This document shows, one piece after another, positions 2,591 through 61,115 of a stretch of 64,000 nucleotides of DNA. The notes below the pieces were generated by a model. That model did not search any database and was not told the origin of the DNA. It was given only the letters and a program-made list of their open reading frames with translations. Every line of letters begins with the position of its first letter. Positions within the stretch are counted from its first letter, which is position 1. The DNA comes from an uncultured Verrucomicrobiae bacterium (GTDB lineage Bacteria; Verrucomicrobiota; Verrucomicrobiia; Chthoniobacterales; JAATET01). The position numbers and the translations under genes are program-made. The DNA lies in NCBI GenBank assembly GCA_963761705.1, contig CAVXHK010000001.1:259140-323139 (forward strand), written 5' to 3'.

Positions 2591-3778
2591 ATGTCAGCGG
2601 TATTAGCACTTGAGGACGGACGGGTTTTTCGAGGAGACGCGTTCGGCGCGAAGACCACGACCGTCGGGGAGATCTGCTTCAACACGGCGATGACCGGCTA
2701 CCAGGAGATCCTCACCGATCCATCCTACCGTGGCCAGATCGTCGCCATGACCGCCCCGCAGATCGGCAACTACGGGTCCAACGACCTCGACGTCGAGAGC
2801 GACGCCCCGCACGTCCGCGGCTTCGTGATCGAAGAACTCAGCCGCATCCCGAGCAACTGGCGCTCGCAGCTGAGCCTCGAAGACTTCCTGGAAAAAAATG
2901 GCATCCCGGGCATCGAATCCATCGACACCCGTGCCCTCACGCGCCACCTGCGGACCCGCGGCGCGATGCGAGCCTGCGTGTCGACCGAGGACCTCTCCGA
3001 CGACGCAGCGGTTGAGCGCGCCCGCGCGGCGAACTACTCCGCCGTCGATTTCGTCGCCGAAGTCACCCCCGCCGCACCCTACGAATGGGACGCAGCCGGC
3101 GAGCGCAGCCGGACCTGGGTGCAGGCAAAAGAAGTCGCCGCCAGCACGGGCGACGCCGACGCGATGGGCAACGTCTTCCAACCCGCCGTCCCCATCGAGC
3201 GCCACATCGTCGCCTACGATTTCGGGATGAAAAAAAACATCCTCCGACTCCTGCGAGCGGCCGGTTTCGGCGTCCAGGTGGTCCCCGCCCGCACCAGCGC
3301 CGCGGACGTTCTCGCGATGAAGCCCGACGGCGTTTTTCTGTCGAACGGCCCCGGCGATCCCGGCGTCCTCGACTACGCTCACGAGACCGCCCGCGAACTT
3401 ATCGGCAAGATCCCCATCTTCGGCATCTGCCTTGGCCACCAGGTTCTCGCCTACGCGTTTGGCGGCAAGACGTTCAAGCTCAAGTTCGGCCACCGCGGCG
3501 CAAACCAACCCGTGAAAGACCTCCGCACGGGTCGCATCGCCATCACCTCGCAGAACCACGGCTACGCGATCGACCCCGATTCACTTCCCGACAACGTCGA
3601 GGTCACTCACATCAATCTCAACGACAACACCGTCGCCGGCATCGCGCACAAAACCCACCCGGTCTTTAGCGTGCAGCACCATCCCGAGGCCTCTCCCGGC
3701 CCCCGCGACGCCGCGTATTTCTTTGACCAGTTCGCGAAAACTGTCGATGAATACCGCTCGATCTCCAAGCCCTCCTGA
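2591..3778 (+). CDS. carA: Carbamoyl-phosphate synthase small (glutamine amidotransferase) subunit
   Basis: MSAVLALEDGRVFRG...NTAMTGYQEILTDPSYRGQIV and GATase region PIFGICLGHQ...VQHHPE. I chose ATG 2591 rather than the upstream in-frame start at 2423, whose extension is Arg/Pro-rich. Confidence 0.93.
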   Translation: MSAVLALEDGRVFRGDAFGAKTTTVGEICFNTAMTGYQEILTDPSYRGQIVAMTAPQIGNYGSNDLDVESDAPHVRGFVIEELSRIPSNWRSQLSLEDFLEKNGIPGIESIDTRALTRHLRTRGAMRACVSTEDLSDDAAVERARAANYSAVDFVAEVTPAAPYEWDAAGERSRTWVQAKEVAASTGDADAMGNVFQPAVPIERHIVAYDFGMKKNILRLLRAAGFGVQVVPARTSAADVLAMKPDGVFLSNGPGDPGVLDYAHETARELIGKIPIFGICLGHQVLAYAFGGKTFKLKFGHRGANQPVKDLRTGRIAITSQNHGYAIDPDSLPDNVEVTHINLNDNTVAGIAHKTHPVFSVQHHPEASPGPRDAAYFFDQFAKTVDEYRSISKPS

Positions 3779-24966: not shown

Positions 24967-24970
24967 TCCA

Positions 24971-25044
24971 GCCGCAAAAAAGGCGCAAAGGGCGCAAAAG
25001 AATTTATTCTCATCGCTTTTGCGCCTCCCGCACCTCTTCGCGGC
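24971..25044. repeat. Gene-less hairpin of the GCGCCTCT-GCGG inverted-repeat family (purine-rich arm, 15-nt loop, pyrimidine-rich arm)
   Basis: GCCGCAAAAAAGGCGCAAAGGGCGCAAAAG, loop aatttattctcatcg, then CTTTTGCGCCTCCCGCACCTCTTCGCGGC. This is an imperfect inverted repeat related to the arms at 42385..42414 and 42797..42826. Confidence 0.7.
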
Positions 25045-25047
25045 CAA

Positions 25048-40732: not shown

Positions 40733-41344
40733 ATGCCGGAAAACATCCACACCGAATTCCACCGCTTCCTCACCCCCGCCGACAAGGAGCGCCTGCTCGG
40801 TCAGCGAGGCGGCGTCTTCTGGATGGTCGGCCTTTCTGGTTCCGGCAAATCCACCATCGCCAACGCCGCCGAGCGCACCCTCCACGACGCCGGGCGCTTC
40901 ACCACCATCCTCGACGGGGACAACCTGCGAAGCGGGTTAAATTCCAACCTCGGCTTCACCGACGACGACCGCCGCGAGAACATCCGGCGCACCGCCGAGG
41001 TCGCCCGGCTCTTCGCCAGCTCGGGCGTCATCACCTTGGTCTCCCTCATCACCCCCCGCGAGGCCTTCCGCGCGATGGCCCGCGAGATCGTCGGCCCCGC
41101 TTACCAAGAGATCTACGTCCGCGCCTCGTTCGAATCCTGCGCCGCCCGCGACCCCAAGGGCCTCTACCAGAAAGCCGCCACCGGAGCCGTCGCCAACTTC
41201 ACGGGCAAAGACAGCAGCTTCGAAGCGCCGGAAAATCCCGACCTCCTGCTCGATACCGAGAGCGACACCGCCGAATCGTGCGCCAAGCGGCTGATCGACT
41301 TTGTCGAGTCGAAGGTGATGGGGTCCAAAGTCGGAAAGTCTTAA
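40733..41344 (+). CDS. cysC: Adenylyl-sulfate (APS) kinase
   Basis: GGVFWMVGLSGSGKSTIANAAERTL...LDGDNLRSGLNSNLGFTDDDRRENIRR...RDPKGLYQKA. The last codons (SKVGKS) are encoded by 8-mer repeat units. Confidence 0.92.
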   Translation: MPENIHTEFHRFLTPADKERLLGQRGGVFWMVGLSGSGKSTIANAAERTLHDAGRFTTILDGDNLRSGLNSNLGFTDDDRRENIRRTAEVARLFASSGVITLVSLITPREAFRAMAREIVGPAYQEIYVRASFESCAARDPKGLYQKAATGAVANFTGKDSSFEAPENPDLLLDTESDTAESCAKRLIDFVESKVMGSKVGKS

Positions 41345-41365
41345 GGTCGGAAAGTCCGGGAACCC

Positions 41366-41413
41366 GCGCCAAAGGCAATCACCTTTTGGCGCCCTTTGCG
41401 CCTCTTTGCGGCC
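41366..41413. repeat. Gene-less hairpin / pyrimidine-rich arm of the same inverted-repeat family
   Basis: GCGCCAAAGG, caatca, then CCTTTTGGCGCCCTTTGCGCCTCTTTGCGGCC. The last 20 nt match the arm at 42805..42824. Confidence 0.6.
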
Positions 41414-41480
41414 AATCCTCACCGCCATTTCGACCTTTGACATTCGTCCTTCCGACTTTCAGACTCACCCGCTTTTTCCG

Positions 41481-42387
41481 ATGCCCGACTACAATCTAAG
41501 CCATCTCGATCAACTCGAGGCCGAGGCCATTTTCATCCTCCGCGAGACCGCCGCGCAGTTCCGCAAGCCGGCCCTCCTCTTTTCCGGCGGCAAGGATTCC
41601 ATCCTCATGGCGCACCTCGCGCACAAGGCGTTCTGGCCGTCGAAACTTCCGTTCCCGCTCGTCCACGTCGACACGGGACACAATTTCGACGAGACGATGA
41701 CTTACCGCGACGCTTACGTTGAAAAGCTCGGCGCCGAGCTCGTCGTCGGCTCCGTCCAACGGTCCATCGACGAGGGCCGCGTCGTCGAAGAGAAGGGCAT
41801 CAACGCCTCTCGCAACAAACTCCAGACCGTCACCCTCCTCGACACCATCGAGGCCAACCAATACGACGCCTGCCTCGGCGGCGGTCGCCGCGACGAAGAA
41901 AAGGCCCGCGCGAAAGAACGCTTCTTTTCCCACCGTGACGAGTTCGGTCAGTGGGATCCGAAGAACCAACGTCCCGAGCTTCTGGAATCTCTTCAACGGG
42001 CGCAAGAGCGAGGGCGAGCACTTCCGCGTCTTCCCGCTGTCGAACTTCACCGAAATGGACGTCTGGCTCTACATCCAGCGCGAGAAGATCGACCTCCCGT
42101 CGCTCTACTTCTCCCACGAGCGCGAAGTCTTCGTTCGCAACGGCACGATGCTGGCCGTCACCGATTTCCTCAAGCCGCAGGACAACGAACTCGTCGAGCG
42201 CAAGGTCGTGCGGTTTCGCACCATCGGCGACGCCACCTGCACGGGCGCGGTCGAATCCCGCGCCTCGACCCTCGACGACATCATCGAAGAAGTTGCCGCC
42301 TCCCGGCAGACCGAACGCGGCACCCGCTCCGACGACAAACGCTCCGAGACCTCGATGGAAGATCGGAAGAGGGAAGGTTATTTTTAG
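41481..42387 (+). pseudogene. cysD: Sulfate adenylyltransferase subunit 2, interrupted by an apparent +1 frameshift
   Basis: Frame A reads MPDYNLSHLDQLEAEAIFILRE...LLFSGGKDS...HRDEFGQWDPKNQRPEL up to 41981. Frame B, from TGG 41983, reads WNLFNGRKSEGEHFRVFPLSNFTEMDVWLYIQ...DRKREGYF, ending at 42387. The two parts total about 301 aa, the normal CysD length. The extra base lies within GAG CTT C TGG (41976..41985). Confidence 0.75.
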
Positions 42388-42826
42388 CCGCAAAGAGGCG
42401 CAAAAGGCTCAAAAAATGACCGATAAGGAGGTGTTCGCTCTTTGTGACAAGGTTCGCGAGACTTCGTTCTCGTTGCATCGCTTTTTACGTTTTGGACATC
42501 TGGAGAAAGTCTACGAGCGGGGAATGAAAAACCGCCTCAAGAAATCCGGTATCCAAGCCGCGTCGCAGTATGCCATCCCAGTCCGTGATGAAGACGGCAC
42601 GCTTTTGGGAGATTTTTTCGCAGACTTATTCGTTGAGGAGATGCTGCTAGTTGAAATCAAGGCAGCCCGCAGTCTCGCAGCCGAGCACACCGCCCAGATC
42701 CTCGGCTACCTCAGAGCCACTGGCATCGAGCATGGTCTCTTGATCAACTTTGGAGCGCCCAAGTTGGAAATAAAGAAATTCGCCCTATCAAAACCCTTTT
42801 GAGCTTTTTGCGCCTCTTTGCGGCTA
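42385..42826 (+). mobile_element. Inverted-repeat-flanked GxxExxY gene cassette inserted between cysD and cysN
   Basis: The left arm 42385..42414 is TAGCCGCAAAGAGGCGCAAAAGGCTCAAAA. The reverse complement of the right arm 42797..42826 is TAGCCGCAAAGAGGCGCAAAAAGCTCAAAA, a 29/30 match counted by hand. The left arm begins with the cysD stop codon. The right arm ends 7 nt before the cysN ATG. Confidence 0.7.
42416..42802 (+). CDS. GxxExxY family protein (PD-(D/E)XK nuclease-like fold)
   Basis: 128 aa with GHLEKVYE (GxxExxY), ADLFVEEMLLVEIK (D...ExK) and C-terminal GLLINFG. Confidence 0.8.
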   Translation: MTDKEVFALCDKVRETSFSLHRFLRFGHLEKVYERGMKNRLKKSGIQAASQYAIPVRDEDGTLLGDFFADLFVEEMLLVEIKAARSLAAEHTAQILGYLRATGIEHGLLINFGAPKLEIKKFALSKPF

Positions 42827-42833
42827 AATAACC

Positions 42834-44078
42834 ATGGACATTCTACGTTTCACCACCGCCGGCTCCGTCGACGACGGCAAATCCACCCTCATCGGCCGCC
42901 TCCTCTACGACTCGAAGAGCATCTTCGAGGACCAGATGACGGCCATGGAGGAAAGCTCCAAACGCCGCGGCGACGCCTCCGTCAACCTCGCCCTCCTCAC
43001 CGACGGCCTCAAAGCCGAGCGCGAACAAGGCATCACCATCGACGTCGCTTACCGCTACTTCGCCACGCCCAAACGCAAATTCATCATCGCCGACACTCCC
43101 GGTCACATTCAATACACGCGAAACATGGTCACCGGCGCCTCCACGGCGAACCTGGCCATCATCCTGATCGACGCCCGCAAAGGTGTCATCGAGCAGACCA
43201 AGCGTCACACCTTCATCGCCGATCTCCTCAAGATCCAGCACGTCGTCGTCTGCGTGAACAAGATGGACCTCGTGGACTACGACGAAGCGGTCTACACGCG
43301 CATCGTCGAAGATTACAAATCCTTCGCTTCCCGCCTCGACAGCCTCGTCGACATCACGACCATCCCGATCAGCGCGCTCAACGGCGACAACGTCGTCGAT
43401 AAATCCACCACCATGCCGTGGTATCAGGGTCCCTCCCTGCTCTATTTCCTCGAAACGGTCTACGTCGGCGGCGAACACAACCACGTCGACGCGCGCTTCC
43501 CCGTTCAGTGGGTCATCCGCCCGCAATCCAAGGAGCACCACGACTACCGCGGCTACGCCGGTCGCGTCGCCGGCGGCGTCTTCAAGCCCGGCGACGACGT
43601 CGTCTGCCTGCCCTCCGGCTTCAAGACCACGATCAAAGGCATCCACTCGGCCGACGGCGACCTCGACGAAGCCTTCGCGCCCCAGTCGACCACGCTCACC
43701 CTCGCCAACGAAATCGACATCTCGCGCGGCGACCTGATCGCCAAACCCAACAACCCACCGAAAGTCTCCCAGGACATCGAGGCCATGATCTGCTGGTTCT
43801 CGCAGACCCCCATGCAGCCTCGCGGCAAGTACCTCATCCGCCACACGACTCGGGAGACCCAGGCCGTCGTCCGCGAGGTCCGCTACATCACCGACATCAA
43901 CACCCTGCACAAGTGCGAAGGCGATCGCACCTTCGAGATGAACGACATCGGCAAGATCCTCCTCCGCACCGCCGCACCGCTCATCCACGATTCCTACCGC
44001 CGCAACCGCATCACCGGCTCCTTCGTTCTCATCAATCCCCAAACGAACGAAACCGTCGCCGCCGGCATGATCGTTTGA
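42834..44078 (+). CDS. cysN: Sulfate adenylyltransferase subunit 1 (GTPase)
   Basis: LRFTTAGSVDDGKSTLIGRLL, DTPGHIQYTRNM, NKMDL; 414 aa. No APS-kinase fusion. Confidence 0.92.
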   Translation: MDILRFTTAGSVDDGKSTLIGRLLYDSKSIFEDQMTAMEESSKRRGDASVNLALLTDGLKAEREQGITIDVAYRYFATPKRKFIIADTPGHIQYTRNMVTGASTANLAIILIDARKGVIEQTKRHTFIADLLKIQHVVVCVNKMDLVDYDEAVYTRIVEDYKSFASRLDSLVDITTIPISALNGDNVVDKSTTMPWYQGPSLLYFLETVYVGGEHNHVDARFPVQWVIRPQSKEHHDYRGYAGRVAGGVFKPGDDVVCLPSGFKTTIKGIHSADGDLDEAFAPQSTTLTLANEIDISRGDLIAKPNNPPKVSQDIEAMICWFSQTPMQPRGKYLIRHTTRETQAVVREVRYITDINTLHKCEGDRTFEMNDIGKILLRTAAPLIHDSYRRNRITGSFVLINPQTNETVAAGMIV

Positions 44079-53085: not shown

Positions 53086-53179
53086 ATTGCTCGGAAGGTC
53101 CCTGGTCAAAAAGTTATTTGAGAATCGTTGGAGCGATTGATTTCGAACCGTCGATCCTCCTCCGCCGACCTTTGACGTC

Positions 53180-53315
53180 CCGACCTTCCGACCTTCCGAC
53201 CTTCCGACCTTCAGACCTTCAGACCTTCAGACCTTCAGACCTTCAGACCTTCAGACCTTCAGACCTTCAGACCTTCCGACCTTCCGACCTTCAGACCTTC
53301 CGACCTTCCGACCTT
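53180..53315. repeat. 17 tandem copies of the 8-bp unit C[C/A]GACCTT, ending 2 nt before the gmd ATG
   Basis: Counted by hand: 4x CCGACCTT, 8x CAGACCTT, 2x CCG, 1x CAG, 2x CCG. The array occupies exactly 53180..53315. Confidence 0.9.
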
Positions 53316-53317
53316 TT

Positions 53318-54370
53318 ATGAAAACAGCAATGATCACCGGGATCACCGGTCAAGACGGGTCCTACCTCGCCGAGCAACTTCTCGCGAAGGGATACGAAGT
53401 CCACGGCATGATCCGCCGCTCCAGCAGCTTCAACACCGAGCGGATCGACCACCTCTACCGCGACCCGGAGATTCTCGACAAAAAGCTCTTCCTCCACCAC
53501 GGCGACCTCACCGATTCGTCCAACCTCAACCGTCTGCTCGAGAAGATCGGCCCGGACGAGATCTACAACCTCGGTGCGCAGAGCCACGTGAAGGTTTCGT
53601 TCGAAGTCCCGGAGTACACCGCCGAAGTCGACGGGATCGGCACCCTTCGCTTCCTCGACGCCATCAAAGAGGTCGGTCTCAAGGACAAGGTCCGGTTTTA
53701 CCAGGCCTCGACCAGCGAGCTCTACGGCCTCGTCCAGGAGGTCCCGCAGACCGAGAAGACCCCGTTTTATCCCCGCTCGCCCTACGGCGTCGCCAAGCTC
53801 TACGGCTATTGGATCATCGTCAACTACCGCGAGTCCTACGGGATCCACGCGTCGAACGGCATCCTCTTCAATCACGAATCTCCCCGTCGCGGTGAGACGT
53901 TCGTCACCCGCAAGATCACCCGCGCCGCCGGTCGCATCAAGGAAGGTCTCGAAGATTGCCTGTTCATGGGCAACATCGACTCCCAGCGCGACTGGGGCTA
54001 CGCGCCCGAATACACGGACGCCATGTGGCACATCCTCCAGCAAGACGAACCCGGCGATTACGTCGCCGCCACGAACGAGATGCACTCCGTTCGGGAGTTC
54101 ATCGACGAGACGTTCAAGCACCTCGGCATGGAACTCGAGTTCCGGGGCGAAGGCGTCAACGAGACCGGCGTCGAGAAATCAACCGGTCGGACGCTCTTCC
54201 GCATCGACCCCAGCTACTTCCGCCCCGCCGAAGTCGAACTCCTCATCGGGGACGCCACCAAAGCCAAGGAAACCTTCGGCTGGGAACCGAAAACGAAATT
54301 CGCCGAACTGGTCAAGATCATGGCCGACGCCGACTGGAAGCTCGCGCAGAAAGAGCGAAGGAATAAGTGA
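53318..54370 (+). CDS. gmd: GDP-mannose 4,6-dehydratase
   Basis: [47 protein letters not shown]...YGVAKLY...[10 protein letters not shown]. Confidence 0.95.
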
Positions 54371-54558
54371 GTCGCAAGGTCCAAGGTCGAAGCGTCAGGT
54401 CAGAATCGCTGGTGCGATTGAAGCTGGGGAGCGCACGCGTCCCCGCGTGTGAGATGCGGCGTCCCGCCGCATCGCAGCAAGCACTTTGGTAGGGCAGGCC
54501 GTCCGCGCCCACCGCCATCCCTACGGCCCATCAAAAAAATCGCACCAGCGATTCAATC

Positions 54559-54667
54559 CCGACCACTCCGACCACTCCGACCACTCCGACCACTCCGACC
54601 ACTCCGACCACTCCGACCTTCCGACCTTCCGACCTTCCGACCTTCCGACCTTCCGACCTTCCGACCC
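54559..54667. repeat. Tandem array of 6x CCGACCACT (9 bp), then 6x CCGACCTT (8 bp) plus a partial unit, ending 11 nt before the exosortase ATG
   Basis: Counted by hand: 9-mers span 54559..54612, 8-mers span 54613..54660, and a partial CCGACCC follows. Confidence 0.9.
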
Positions 54668-54678
54668 GAGAACATCCC

Positions 54679-59629: not shown

Positions 59630-60263
59630 CCTCTCTGCGTCTCAACGCCTCTGCGGGAAAAAAGTATCGATACAGGAACTCGCGCAACCGAAGGCTCGGG
59701 GGAGCCGAAGATAGACGAAAAGCCCGAAGGGTGACCGAGCTGGGTTGCGAGGGAATCAAAGGCGCAGAGGCGCAGAGAATGAAGATGCTGGTGGGTTTCA
59801 CCCAAAGAGCGCTAAACCTACAGATCAGCTAATTCCAATAACTATCAACTGTATCTCAGGCCTCCGCGCCTCCGCGCCTCCGCGGGCTAAAAGTATCAAT
59901 ACAGGGACTCGCGCTGAGACGCAGAGGCGCAGAGAATGAAGATGGCTATGGGTTTCACGCGGTTCCTGCACGAAGAGCTACTGATTAGATATTTCCAACA
60001 ACAAAAACTCAATAACTATCAACTGTATCTCAGCCCTCCGCGTCTCTGCGCCTCCGCGGGAGAAAAGTATCGATACAGGGACTCGCGCAGAGGCGCAGAG
60101 GCGCAGAGAATGAAGATGGCGATGGGTTTCACGCAAAGAGCGCTAAATTTACAGATCAGCTAATTCCAATAATTAGTAACTGTATCTCAGCCCTCCGCGC
60201 CTCTGCGCCTCTGCGGGAGAAAAGTATCAGTATCAATCCAGGAACTCGCGCAGAGACGCAGAG
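59630..60263. repeat. Mosaic palindromic-repeat zone 3
   Basis: Four hairpin units, three C modules, and D copy 59683..59749. Confidence 0.85.
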
Positions 60264-60285
60264 AGTGGTGAAGGGTCCTTGAAAA

Positions 60286-60669
60286 ATGACGGAGAATGAG
60301 ATCGGAACGAAGGTTCTGGAGGTATCGATTGAAATCCACAGGGAGCTGGGTCCCGGGCTGCTTGAAACGGTTTACGAAGTGGTTCTGGCAAAGGAACTGT
60401 CTTTACGTGGCCTGATTGTGCAGCGCCAGGTGCCGGTGCCAATCCTGTGTCGCGGAACTCGGTTTGATGAAGGTTTTCGCGCTGATCTGATTATTAACCG
60501 GACCGTCCTTCTGGAACTCAAATCTGTCGAAAAGGTAATCCCTGCCCACAAGAAGCAAGTGCAGACCTACCTGCGACTCACTGGTATCAAGCTGGGTTAT
60601 CTTTTGAACTTTGGTGAGTCTGTTCTGAAAAGTGGGATCACTCGCTGCGTCAATGGCCTCGAATCATGA
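60286..60669 (+). CDS. GxxExxY family protein (PD-(D/E)XK nuclease-like fold)
   Basis: GLLETVYE, RADLIINRTVLLELK, GYLLNFG. An R arm ends 22 nt upstream and an L arm starts 3 nt after the stop. Confidence 0.8.
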   Translation: MTENEIGTKVLEVSIEIHRELGPGLLETVYEVVLAKELSLRGLIVQRQVPVPILCRGTRFDEGFRADLIINRTVLLELKSVEKVIPAHKKQVQTYLRLTGIKLGYLLNFGESVLKSGITRCVNGLES

Positions 60670-60672
60670 ATT

Positions 60673-61115
60673 CCCTCCGCGCCTCTGCGCCTCTGCGGGC
60701 TAAAAGTATCAATCCAGGAACTCGCGCAGAGGCGCAGAGATTGAAGATGCGATGGGTTTCAAGCGGCCCTCGAGCGAAGAGCGGCAGGTCTACAGATCAA
60801 CTGCTCCCAATACCCAATAACTATCACCTGGATCTCAGCCCTCAGCGCCTCCGCGCCTCTGCGGGCTAAAAGCATTCAATACAGAAACTCGCGCAACCGA
60901 AGGCTCGGGGGAGCCGAAGATAGACGAAAAGCCCGAAGGGTGACCGAGCTGGGTTGCGAGGGAATCAAAGACGCAGAGACGCAGAGATTCATACAAATGC
61001 GGATGAGAAAAGGCTGAAAGAGAAGAACAGGGGAAATTAAAGGAAGCTGAATTTTGTAAAGAATCCCCTCAGCGTCTCAGCGCCTCTGCGGGAGAAAAGT
61101 ATCAATACAGGGACT
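60673..61115. repeat. Mosaic palindromic-repeat zone 4
   Basis: Hairpin at 60673..60739, a C module, a hairpin with D copy 60892..60958, a B module, and a final L arm plus linker. Confidence 0.85.

Follow-up and report, generated by a model that had tools for sequence, protein, structure and literature searches.

In a 64-kb stretch of a contig from an uncultured Verrucomicrobiae bacterium (CAVXHK010000001.1, positions 259,140–323,139; hereafter the window), a 446-bp unit consisting of one small GxxExxY-family gene and two enclosing inverted repeats (arms) lies exactly between cysD and cysN. Comparison with relatives makes it very likely that this unit is a mobile or selfish insertion. The best explanation as a whole, to which we assign a probability of about 0.5, is a mobile selfish single-gene cassette whose encoded nuclease acts on the arms and whose presence in the operon is made tolerable at the RNA level. 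The features of the locus are the following, L-numbers denoting loci of relatives.

41481–42387, + strand: cysD, the upstream host gene, its frame shifted by +1 near 41980 when compared with L081 and L082
42376–42833, + strand: predicted closing stem over its whole extent (37 bp, −61.4 kcal/mol)
42383–42414, + strand: left terminal arm, TTTAGCCGCAAAGAGGCGCAAAAGGCTCAAAA, with three ~9-nt CRCARAGG-type units; holds the cysD stop codon TAG (42385–42387)
42416–42802, + strand: GxxExxY / PDDEXK_3 open reading frame (ORF), 128 aa, matching the PF13366 and TIGR04256 profiles
42797–42828, + strand: right terminal arm, TTTTGAGCTTTTTGCGCCTCTTTGCGGCTAAA; its TAA at 42825–42827 is a candidate for the displaced original cysD stop codon
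42834–44078, + strand: cysN, the downstream host gene, intact

A repeat finder returned the arms as a 32-nt inverted repeat of 97% identity (31 of 32 positions pair) with 382 nt between them, the second-longest in the window, and the arm core occurs three times in the window where 0.29 occurrences are expected. Length rank, core count and conservation of the arms in relatives together show that the repeat is not due to chance. The initial annotation had outlined it as 30-nt arms (42385–42414 and 42797–42826) matching at 29 of 30 positions, the left one opening with the cysD stop and the right one ending at 42826, 7 nt before the cysN ATG at 42834; these details were all borne out, and relative to the 32-nt right arm the ATG lies 5 nt downstream. 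The ORF starts 1 nt past the left arm and ends with a TGA (42800–42802) inside the right arm, so that no base is spare. Duplex prediction paired 42376–42415 with 42796–42833, the stem being extended beyond the arms by host bases, namely GGTTAT from the last cysD codons and ATAACC directly before the cysN ATG, and in the predicted fold of 42360–42850 a single stem closes the whole insert (fold z-score −3.4). The G+C content is 0.50–0.54 in the insert versus 0.59–0.64 in the flanks.

The neighbouring genes encode an APS kinase, CysD (in two frames), CysN and a CysQ-type phosphatase. CysN is constrained (omega 0.06). The cysD frame is split by an extra base at 41975–41985 (CCCGAGCTTCTGG in the window versus CCCGAAC-TCTGG in L081 and L082), which is due to a mistake in the assembly or to inactivation in the very recent past.

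For the comparison of cysD–cysN junctions, which the initial annotation had proposed, 80 loci encoding CysN relatives were fetched from a species-representative collection to which the window's own genome does not belong; the best of them are from Verrucomicrobiota at 71–81% identity, and closer relatives (L101–L104 and others) were added by protein search and contig look-ups. In most of the fetched loci the gap between cysD and cysN measures 3–160 nt. In L101 and L102, whose CysN is 92% identical to that of the window, the site is empty, with a 12-nt spacer (…GGC TAC TTT TAA ttttaatcatcg ATG; L101-type empty site TACTTTTAATTTTAATCATCGATG), and it is also empty in L004 (7-nt spacer). Filled sites, with a 128-aa GxxExxY protein encoded between arms, were found in L081 (CysN 96% identical), L082 (94%) and L103/L104 (87%). 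The empty sites support the earlier proposal of a small selfish insertion between two normally adjacent genes, and this polymorphism of filled and empty sites among close relatives defeats the reading as ancestral gene order; the gene-bearing relatives also bear the arms, none presenting the bare gene that the initial annotation had named as the mark of such an order. L105 has a 172-nt gene-less cysD–cysN spacer in which recognisable arms were not found, so that it cannot be called a footprint. At 2480–2500 of L101 we observed CTAC TTTTAA TTTTAA TCATCG, where 6 nt, the stop codon among them, are duplicated in tandem; this could be an excision footprint or simple slippage.

Where the site is filled, the history of the cassette is decoupled from that of the flanking genes. 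Between the window and L081, the cassette differs at 12 of 446 positions (2.7%) and the flanks at 129 of 1568 (8.2%; Fisher p=1.3e-5), with 6 of 128 third codon positions differing in the cassette versus 47 of 222 in cysN; the corresponding synonymous divergence (dS, Nei-Gojobori) is 0.085 versus 0.435, that is, 5-fold lower in the cassette. Relative to L082 the sign is reversed, with 28.5% divergence in the cassette, 10.4% in the flanks (p=2.8e-19) and a 3-fold higher dS (1.88 versus 0.55), and here the left arm shows 1 difference in 32 positions while the 5' part of the gene differs by 35%. The GxxExxY proteins residing at cysD–cysN in three sister lineages share 65–67% identity (CysN 84–96%) and are no closer to each other than to those of cassettes in other operons of other organisms (55–73%). 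In L103, moreover, a fossil older left arm and the first codons of an older GxxExxY gene stand directly upstream of the current left arm, which points to successive occupation of one site; the fossil, at 1953–2012 and also present in L104, reads TAGCCGCGAAGAGGCTCAG followed by GTGGATGAGGATAA, the start of the older ORF. Divergence, dS, allele identity and the fossil together indicate that a fixed site has been invaded or refilled repeatedly, with the arms as boundaries. Among close relatives the cassette is present, absent or replaced.

The combination of arms and gene recurs at other junctions. GxxExxY homologs were found between nuoD and nuoE (L083–85; arms GGGTTTGCCGCAAAAAGGCGCAAAAATTTT / AAAAATTTTGCGCCTTTTTGCGGCTAACCC), between etfB and etfA (L096–100, an arrangement shown by more than 24 contigs), in an ABC-transporter operon between the genes for the binding protein and the permease (L095) and in unrelated soil and freshwater contigs (L086–L093), a metagenome scan for close relatives having returned 9 loci. 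Proteins at the nuo, etf, ABC and metagenome sites share 55–72% identity with the window copy, and the arms of this first subfamily take the form (T)AGCC[G/A]CAAA[A/G]AGGC[G/A]CAAAAG. Relatives of a second copy in the window (see below) carry (CGCAGAGG)n arms at purL–purQ (L111), whereas L110 and L112 have a left arm only, at a CoA-transferase–aminotransferase junction. Distant members (30–39% identity) were located in annotated replicons of Sphingomonas, between fabD and fabG (arms CGCGAAGGCGCGAGGACGCGA, 25 nt, 92%), and of Bacteroides finegoldii, after radA (arms CACAGAGGACGCAGAGGACACGGAG, 30 nt, 90%). At all of the at least 13 distinct sites, the GxxExxY gene is co-directional with both neighbours.

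To quantify the association we counted an arm-unit pattern (CRCRRARR or CRCRARRG) in the flanks of 19 GxxExxY cassettes. Sixteen of the 19 carry it in the expected orientation, in line with the expectation that most copies would be flanked by such arms. In total, 53 units stood in the expected and 4 in the opposite orientation, none occurred around seven four-helix-bundle cassettes (see below), and at 1.39 units per flank, where the background is 0.085 per 70 nt, the enrichment is ~16-fold; it is indicative rather than a clean test, since the pattern was set after part of the same data had been viewed. Within this limit the arm unit appears specific to the GxxExxY family across phyla. More elaborate arrangements were also seen. 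In L095, four tandem ~62-nt left-arm units (2229–2500) and at least three right-arm units (2888–3198) surround one GxxExxY gene in an onion-like manner, each unit carrying a G/C-rich extension (GACCCGACCTCGGCCCC / GGGGGCGAGGTAGGGGG), and in L096 a gene-less arm pair is lodged between the GxxExxY gene and the gene's own right arm. Carriage by phages was rejected, no relative having been found in IMG/VR viral contigs.

Elements of the first subfamily begin with TA|GCC and end with GGC|TA, and at four independent sites, cysD (in four lineages), L087, L090/91 and L095, the upstream gene terminates at the TAG of the element; in L082 the stop of cysC is supplied by the TAG of a gene-less copy. In most copies the right end is then followed by TAA or TGA. 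This stop-codon fusion does not extend to the four-helix-bundle cassettes. TA stands at both ends of most copies, and reconstruction from the empty site of L101 is compatible with a TA target; as TA is palindromic, its duplication is inseparable from the end of the inverted repeat. With the L101 sequence as the empty site, the simplest reconstruction would place the insertion at a TA within a stop-codon context rich in A/T. Here TAYTTYTAA is imposed by the conserved CysD C-terminus (…GYF*), which may help to make the site a recurrent target in GC-rich genomes. A pre-existing hairpin as the insertion target was rejected: no conserved hairpin was found at the empty cysD–cysN spacers of relatives, most of which are unstructured (z near 0).

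The cassette protein matches PF13366 (2e-28, 99.5 bits, cutoff 22) and, over residues 9–122, TIGR04256 (108 bits, cutoff 35). In an alignment of 42 sequences G27, E30, Y33, D70, E80, K82, Q94 and Y98 are invariant, the G-x-x-E-x-x-Y motif lying in the second helix and the D70…E80-x-K82…Q94-xxx-Y98 site being intact. With no relative of solved structure found in the PDB by sequence, the fold rests on an AF2/AlphaFold model of high confidence (pLDDT 91.6; order helix-helix-strand-strand-strand-helix-strand-strand), which contains the alpha-beta-beta-beta-alpha-beta core of PD-(D/E)XK nucleases. A Foldseek search of the PDB gave Cas4 SSO0001 (4ic1) as best match (E=8.5e-5, TM 0.56), followed by lambda exonuclease, LHK-Exo, AdnAB, MGME1 and RecE, with tRNA-splicing endonucleases and Hjc scoring more weakly. 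Model, structural matches and invariant active-site residues thus support the nuclease-type fold put forward in the initial annotation, and we predict a minimal Cas4/RecB/lambda-exonuclease-like PD-(D/E)XK nuclease. Cas4 proper was rejected, as the protein has 128 aa, lacks the conserved Cys quartet (Fe-S) and is encoded among metabolic rather than cas genes. The cassette ORF is under purifying selection (omega 0.07–0.12), which indicates that the protein is functional. Neither the GxxExxY nor the four-helix-bundle protein matched a PADLOC defence model. The family comprises 23,209 representatives at 50% identity, 8,351 of which reach E<=1e-10; some (e.g. P0262, P0296, P0297, P0301 and P0308) have 250–295 aa and two tandem GxxExxY domains, and are either fused neighbouring cassettes or true two-domain proteins.

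Related units elsewhere in the window, several of them gene-less, are the following.

24970–25045, + strand: complete gene-less copy with 31-nt arms AGCCGCAAAAAAGGCGCAAAGGGCGCAAAAG / CTTTTGCGCCTCCCGCACCTCTTCGCGGCC and a 15-nt loop
41366–41415, + strand: eroded gene-less copy in the cysC–cysD spacer, a small hairpin with right-arm-type CTTTGCGCCTCTTTGCGGCCAA
56679–63090, + strand: array of ~18 R-content-L units of a related arm type, all genes on the + strand
60246–60703, + strand: second cassette, consisting of an R-type arm, a GxxExxY ORF (60286–60669) and an L-type arm, the arms being of the (CGCAGAGG)n type

The complete gene-less copy starts 3 nt past a TAA stop codon and ends 2 nt before the stop of the convergent gene; a fuller gene-less hairpin than that at 41366–41415 occupies the cysC–cysD spacer of L082. 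The second GxxExxY gene, correctly placed at 60286–60669 between R and L arms by the initial annotation (PF13366 1e-37, TIGR04256 129 bits), encodes a protein 33% identical to that of the cys copy. The further claim that the cys arms are variants of the array arms stood in part: the cys right arm and the array L arm are identical at 27 of 38 positions, and both share the core TGCGCCTCT..GCGG.CTAAA and the same repeat unit. Most array units are gene-less, with an inner part of ~100–128 nt, while others carry MazE/PIN, RHH/PIN and MNT/HEPN pairs and one is the second cassette. Arm duplexes range from −46 to −61 kcal/mol. The units alternate strictly as R-content-L and are joined by a constant ~25-nt linker (GGCTAAAAGTATCAATACAGGAACT). 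A relative at 96% (L109) has a different gene set in its array, from which we conclude that the array turns over quickly.

The window also contains long tandem (GACCTTCM)n octamer runs (41430–41470, 53142–53339, 54374–54403 and 54559–54670), some directly upstream of a gmd-like gene and of the one that follows it; units of the inverted AAGGTC type stand just past the gmd stop. GACCTT/TTTGAC repeats precede cysD in the window, L081, L082, L101, L103 and L105, and the GACCTTCM octamer also builds the arms of the four-helix-bundle cassette of L001; such octamers look like periodic intergenic repeats of a class that extends across the lineage. In the gap separating gmd from the gene after it, the palindromic GAATCGCTGGTGCGATT / AATCGCACCAGCGATTC at 54404–54420 / 54541–54557 bracket a ~120-nt GC-rich segment. 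This is another repeated intergenic element, with a similar motif at 53125–53143.

The cysD–cysN junction is shared with a second gene family. A TIGR02436/PF05635 four-helix-bundle gene occupies the gap in L001, L002, L009 and L011 (Verrucomicrobiota) and in L021, L032 and L044 (Bacteroidota), probably also in L034, and L037 carries a frameshifted GxxExxY gene. These inserts are all flanked by 30–41-nt inverted repeats of lineage-specific 7–9-nt tandem units. With 8 inserts at 78 cysD–cysN junctions versus 6 at ~425 other junctions of the same loci (odds ratio ~8, p=3e-4), cysD–cysN is a hotspot also for "23S rRNA intervening-sequence (IVS) protein" cassettes of the same architecture. PF05635 is described as an uncharacterised Avd-like family of rRNA intervening sequences, which are removed by RNase III without ligation (PMC11270868, PMC10053308). 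In L003, L060 and L033 the junction is taken up by periodic hairpins that enclose no gene. A different kind of insert stands there in two Akkermansiaceae metagenome-assembled genomes (L005, 2592–4000; L010, 2675–4000), namely an ORF of ~430–440 aa with a signal-peptide-like N-terminus. At the CoA-transferase–aminotransferase junction of L112 (2001–2751), a PF05635 gene follows within 2 nt after the GxxExxY gene, and this second cassette seems to have entered the downstream aminotransferase gene just behind its fifth codon (ATGACCACGCAAACC, followed by periodic arms rich in AT).

At the transcript level, a consensus scan found no promoter- or terminator-like site in 41300–43000, a weak negative given that promoters of Verrucomicrobiota may differ from the consensus, and a gathering-threshold Rfam search of the whole window gave 0 matches to known RNA families. 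The missing sites, together with the constant orientation of the gene relative to its neighbours, suggest that the cassette is transcribed by read-through from the operon. Selection on the arms as sense-strand RNA gave no signal, G.U and A.C mismatches being about equally frequent (25 versus 26 over 20 arm pairs).

In the mechanism that we propose, the nuclease would recognise or cut DNA at its cognate arms, or at the hairpin or cruciform that they form, and repair would copy the cassette into arm-bearing or empty sites, a form of homing or gene conversion with the arms as its limits. A site not occupied before might first be reached via TA in an A/T-rich stop-codon context, and the GxxExxY protein may also act in trans on gene-less and cargo-carrying units. 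The cassette would be the "autonomous-type" member of an element family with gene-less derivatives. Having no promoter of its own, the cassette would be co-transcribed with the operon, its arms forming an RNA stem of ~37 bp that is probably cleaved by the host RNase III, as in 23S rRNA IVS and Correia elements. Such a cut would render insertion between cistrons nearly harmless, like that of intervening sequences in rRNA. Taken separately, the nuclease-driven step at the DNA level falls somewhat short of even odds in our estimate, and the RNA-level insulation of the operon is credited to about the same degree.

Several observations weigh against this explanation. A nuclease of 128 aa alone cannot explain integration at a naive site, and the initial annotation's proposal that the protein moves or maintains the unit has indirect support only, in that the arm unit is specific to the GxxExxY family across phyla. 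The four-helix-bundle cassettes share niche and architecture without encoding a nuclease, so the architecture as such needs none; likewise, the arms of the array flank toxin-antitoxin cargo and gene-less units, which a trans-acting host or transposase factor would also explain. Direct-repeat target duplication was not seen beyond the ambiguous TA, and the anomalous identity between the window and L081 is confined to 42383–42828, flank co-conversion as in classical homing not being seen. The window holds two GxxExxY copies only, at 33% identity, and hence gives no sign of a recent burst. One arm is missing in L110 and L112, no arm was detectable in L094 and L107, and the balanced mismatch counts give no RNA signal on the sense strand.

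In one alternative the unit is a non-autonomous mobile insertion cassette, with arms recognised by an unlinked transposase or recombinase and the GxxExxY gene as passenger cargo without a part in movement, e.g. an addiction or defence nuclease. Mobile insertion cassettes that carry passengers are already known, the same architecture encloses unrelated cargo (PF05635 genes, and MazE/PIN, RHH/PIN and MNT/HEPN pairs in the array), gene-less units are abundant, different cassettes of one genome share arm types even where, as for the cys and array copies, the proteins are only 33% identical, and the octamer from which the L001 arms are built is found in the window as plain repeats between genes, too. 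However, CRCARAGG tracks the GxxExxY gene across Verrucomicrobiota, Bacteroidota and Alphaproteobacteria and is absent from the four-helix-bundle cassettes, which is unexpected for arms that serve a host-specific transposase; moreover, no transposase adjoins any cassette at the loci inspected, the target duplication typical of DDE transposases was not seen and no PADLOC defence model was matched. We regard this alternative as unlikely. Still less probable is an intervening sequence that acts at the RNA level only, its stem being excised by RNase III without ligation and leaving a small mRNA, while the DNA is not actively mobile and spreads through ordinary homologous recombination or gene conversion between arm-bearing copies. 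For this speak, as circumstantial support for the RNA-level excision that the initial annotation had raised, the IVS-family genes at 7–8 of 78 cysD–cysN loci with their 30–41-nt inverted repeats, the PF05635 gene directly beside GxxExxY in L112, the long and stable stems, the gene-less periodic hairpins at the junction in L003, L060 and L033, and the positions themselves, since between cistrons and in rRNA helices excision without ligation would be harmless. Yet G.U pairs are not in excess over A.C, the arm sequence itself is kept (1 difference in 32) while synonymous sites of the gene are saturated, the catalytic motif is that of a metal-dependent DNA nuclease of the Cas4/RecB type, and reaching many unrelated junctions in unrelated genomes needs an insertion step at the DNA level.

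The array invites a comparison with integrons, in that its small genes, toxin-antitoxin pairs included, are co-oriented, apparently promoterless and separated by imperfect hairpins of ~75 nt, and in that its content differs between close relatives; the arms would then be attC-like halves, the array one that lacks its integrase and the cys copy an insertion at a secondary site. We rejected this as very improbable. At cys, nuo, etf, pur and fab the gene has arms symmetrically on both sides and no complete hairpin follows the ORF at its 3' end; the arms consist of tandem 8–9-mers, the GGCTAA end faces the loop in the array hairpins, opposite to the attC R''/R' geometry, and no integrase was found among the window ORFs inspected round the array or beside any of the loci. 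If the gene were simply an ancestral part of the cys operon, e.g. a sulfate-activation accessory beside which the repeats are incidental, this would account for GxxExxY at the same position in four related lineages. This reading is contradicted by empty sites in close and distant relatives, by alleles whose divergence is not that of orthologs, by the same gene and arms in nuo, etf, pur, fab and ABC-transporter operons, and by the lower G+C content of the insert, and we consider it scarcely credible.

Beyond the self-mobilising cassette favoured here, a wider claim is possible but doubtful: GxxExxY and CRCARAGG arms may represent an unrecognised class of autonomous elements with a ~125-aa nuclease as the sole protein, stop-codon/TA targets between cistrons, mobilisation in trans of gene-less and toxin-antitoxin-carrying relatives, and inverted-repeat-based RNA excision without ligation. 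Were it true, the operon cassettes and the ORF-bearing rRNA intervening sequences (PF05635, GxxExxY) would be one phenomenon. Although GxxExxY/PDDEXK_3 proteins are annotated in thousands of genomes, the searchable literature is essentially silent on their function and offers incidental mentions only, in agreement with the initial annotation, which had called the role of the family not established. Our literature searches found no prior description of the GxxExxY architecture, the arm unit or the cysD–cysN hotspot, and nothing relevant on inverted-repeat-flanked IVS-type genes or tandem-repeat arms. The present locus and its relatives give the family a concrete biology, as a compact cassette with cognate periodic inverted repeats that settles at stop codons where subunit genes of core operons meet (cysDN, nuoDE, etfBA, purLQ, fabDG) and has a faster turnover than the host genes. 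They also link the equally little-known "23S rRNA IVS protein" family to the same niche, which suggests a general rule that such elements survive where a cut in the transcript needs no rejoining. If the nuclease is the engine of mobility, the cassettes would rank with the smallest DNA elements known to mobilise themselves and would supply mini-nucleases specific for a sequence or a structure. In practical terms, they break up operons when genomes are annotated, give rise to misassembly at the repeats and may change the ratio of the subunits encoded on either side.

Among known systems, the cassette resembles the Correia/NEMIS elements, which are miniature inverted-repeat transposable elements (MITEs) of Neisseria, in several respects: these have ~26-nt terminal inverted repeats, insert at TA by or between genes, are co-transcribed with them and vary in presence between strains, and RNase III binds or cleaves the hairpins that their repeats form in mRNAs (PMC2649163). 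Correia elements are, however, gene-less, whereas here the loop is filled to the nucleotide by the ORF of a nuclease under selection, the arms are built of tandem 9-mers whose unit follows the gene family across phyla, and cleavage by RNase III is proposed by analogy. Mobile insertion cassettes likewise place inverted repeats round one or a few non-transposase genes and have gene-less (MITE) relatives in the same genome. The GxxExxY unit departs from them in that no cognate insertion sequence or transposase was seen and no target duplication is evident, and the fact that its cargo always belongs to one family and correlates with the arm sequence suggests that the "cargo" is the active protein. 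The 23S/16S rRNA intervening sequences with PF05635/TIGR02436 (Avd-like) genes share a small ORF within a long closing stem in a transcript that tolerates unligated excision, but the cassette lies in an mRNA spacer between cysD and cysN, not in an rRNA helix, and belongs to another gene family. The TIGRFAMs family note reportedly places GxxExxY genes themselves in rRNA intervening sequences as well. Repetitive extragenic palindromic (REP/REPIN) sequences mobilised by RAYT are comparable as abundant, partly clustered intergenic palindromic repeats of genome-specific sequence at gene ends; yet a RAYT (Y1 HUH) gene was not seen, the arms are tandem 8–9-mers and gene-carrying versions are not a feature of REPINs. 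Free-standing homing endonuclease genes, finally, include seg and mob between conserved genes of phage T4, and a PD-(D/E)XK homing enzyme is known in I-Ssp6803I. They have in common with the cassette a small nuclease gene that occurs sporadically at a fixed site between conserved co-directional genes, with re-invasion and degeneration (the frameshifted L037, the fossil of L103) and a history decoupled from the flanks, but they normally lack terminal inverted repeats and show flank co-conversion, while the anomaly of the cassette stops at its arms. By analogy, the cassette thus appears to work like a cross of a Correia-type MITE, a mobile insertion cassette and a free-standing homing-endonuclease gene.

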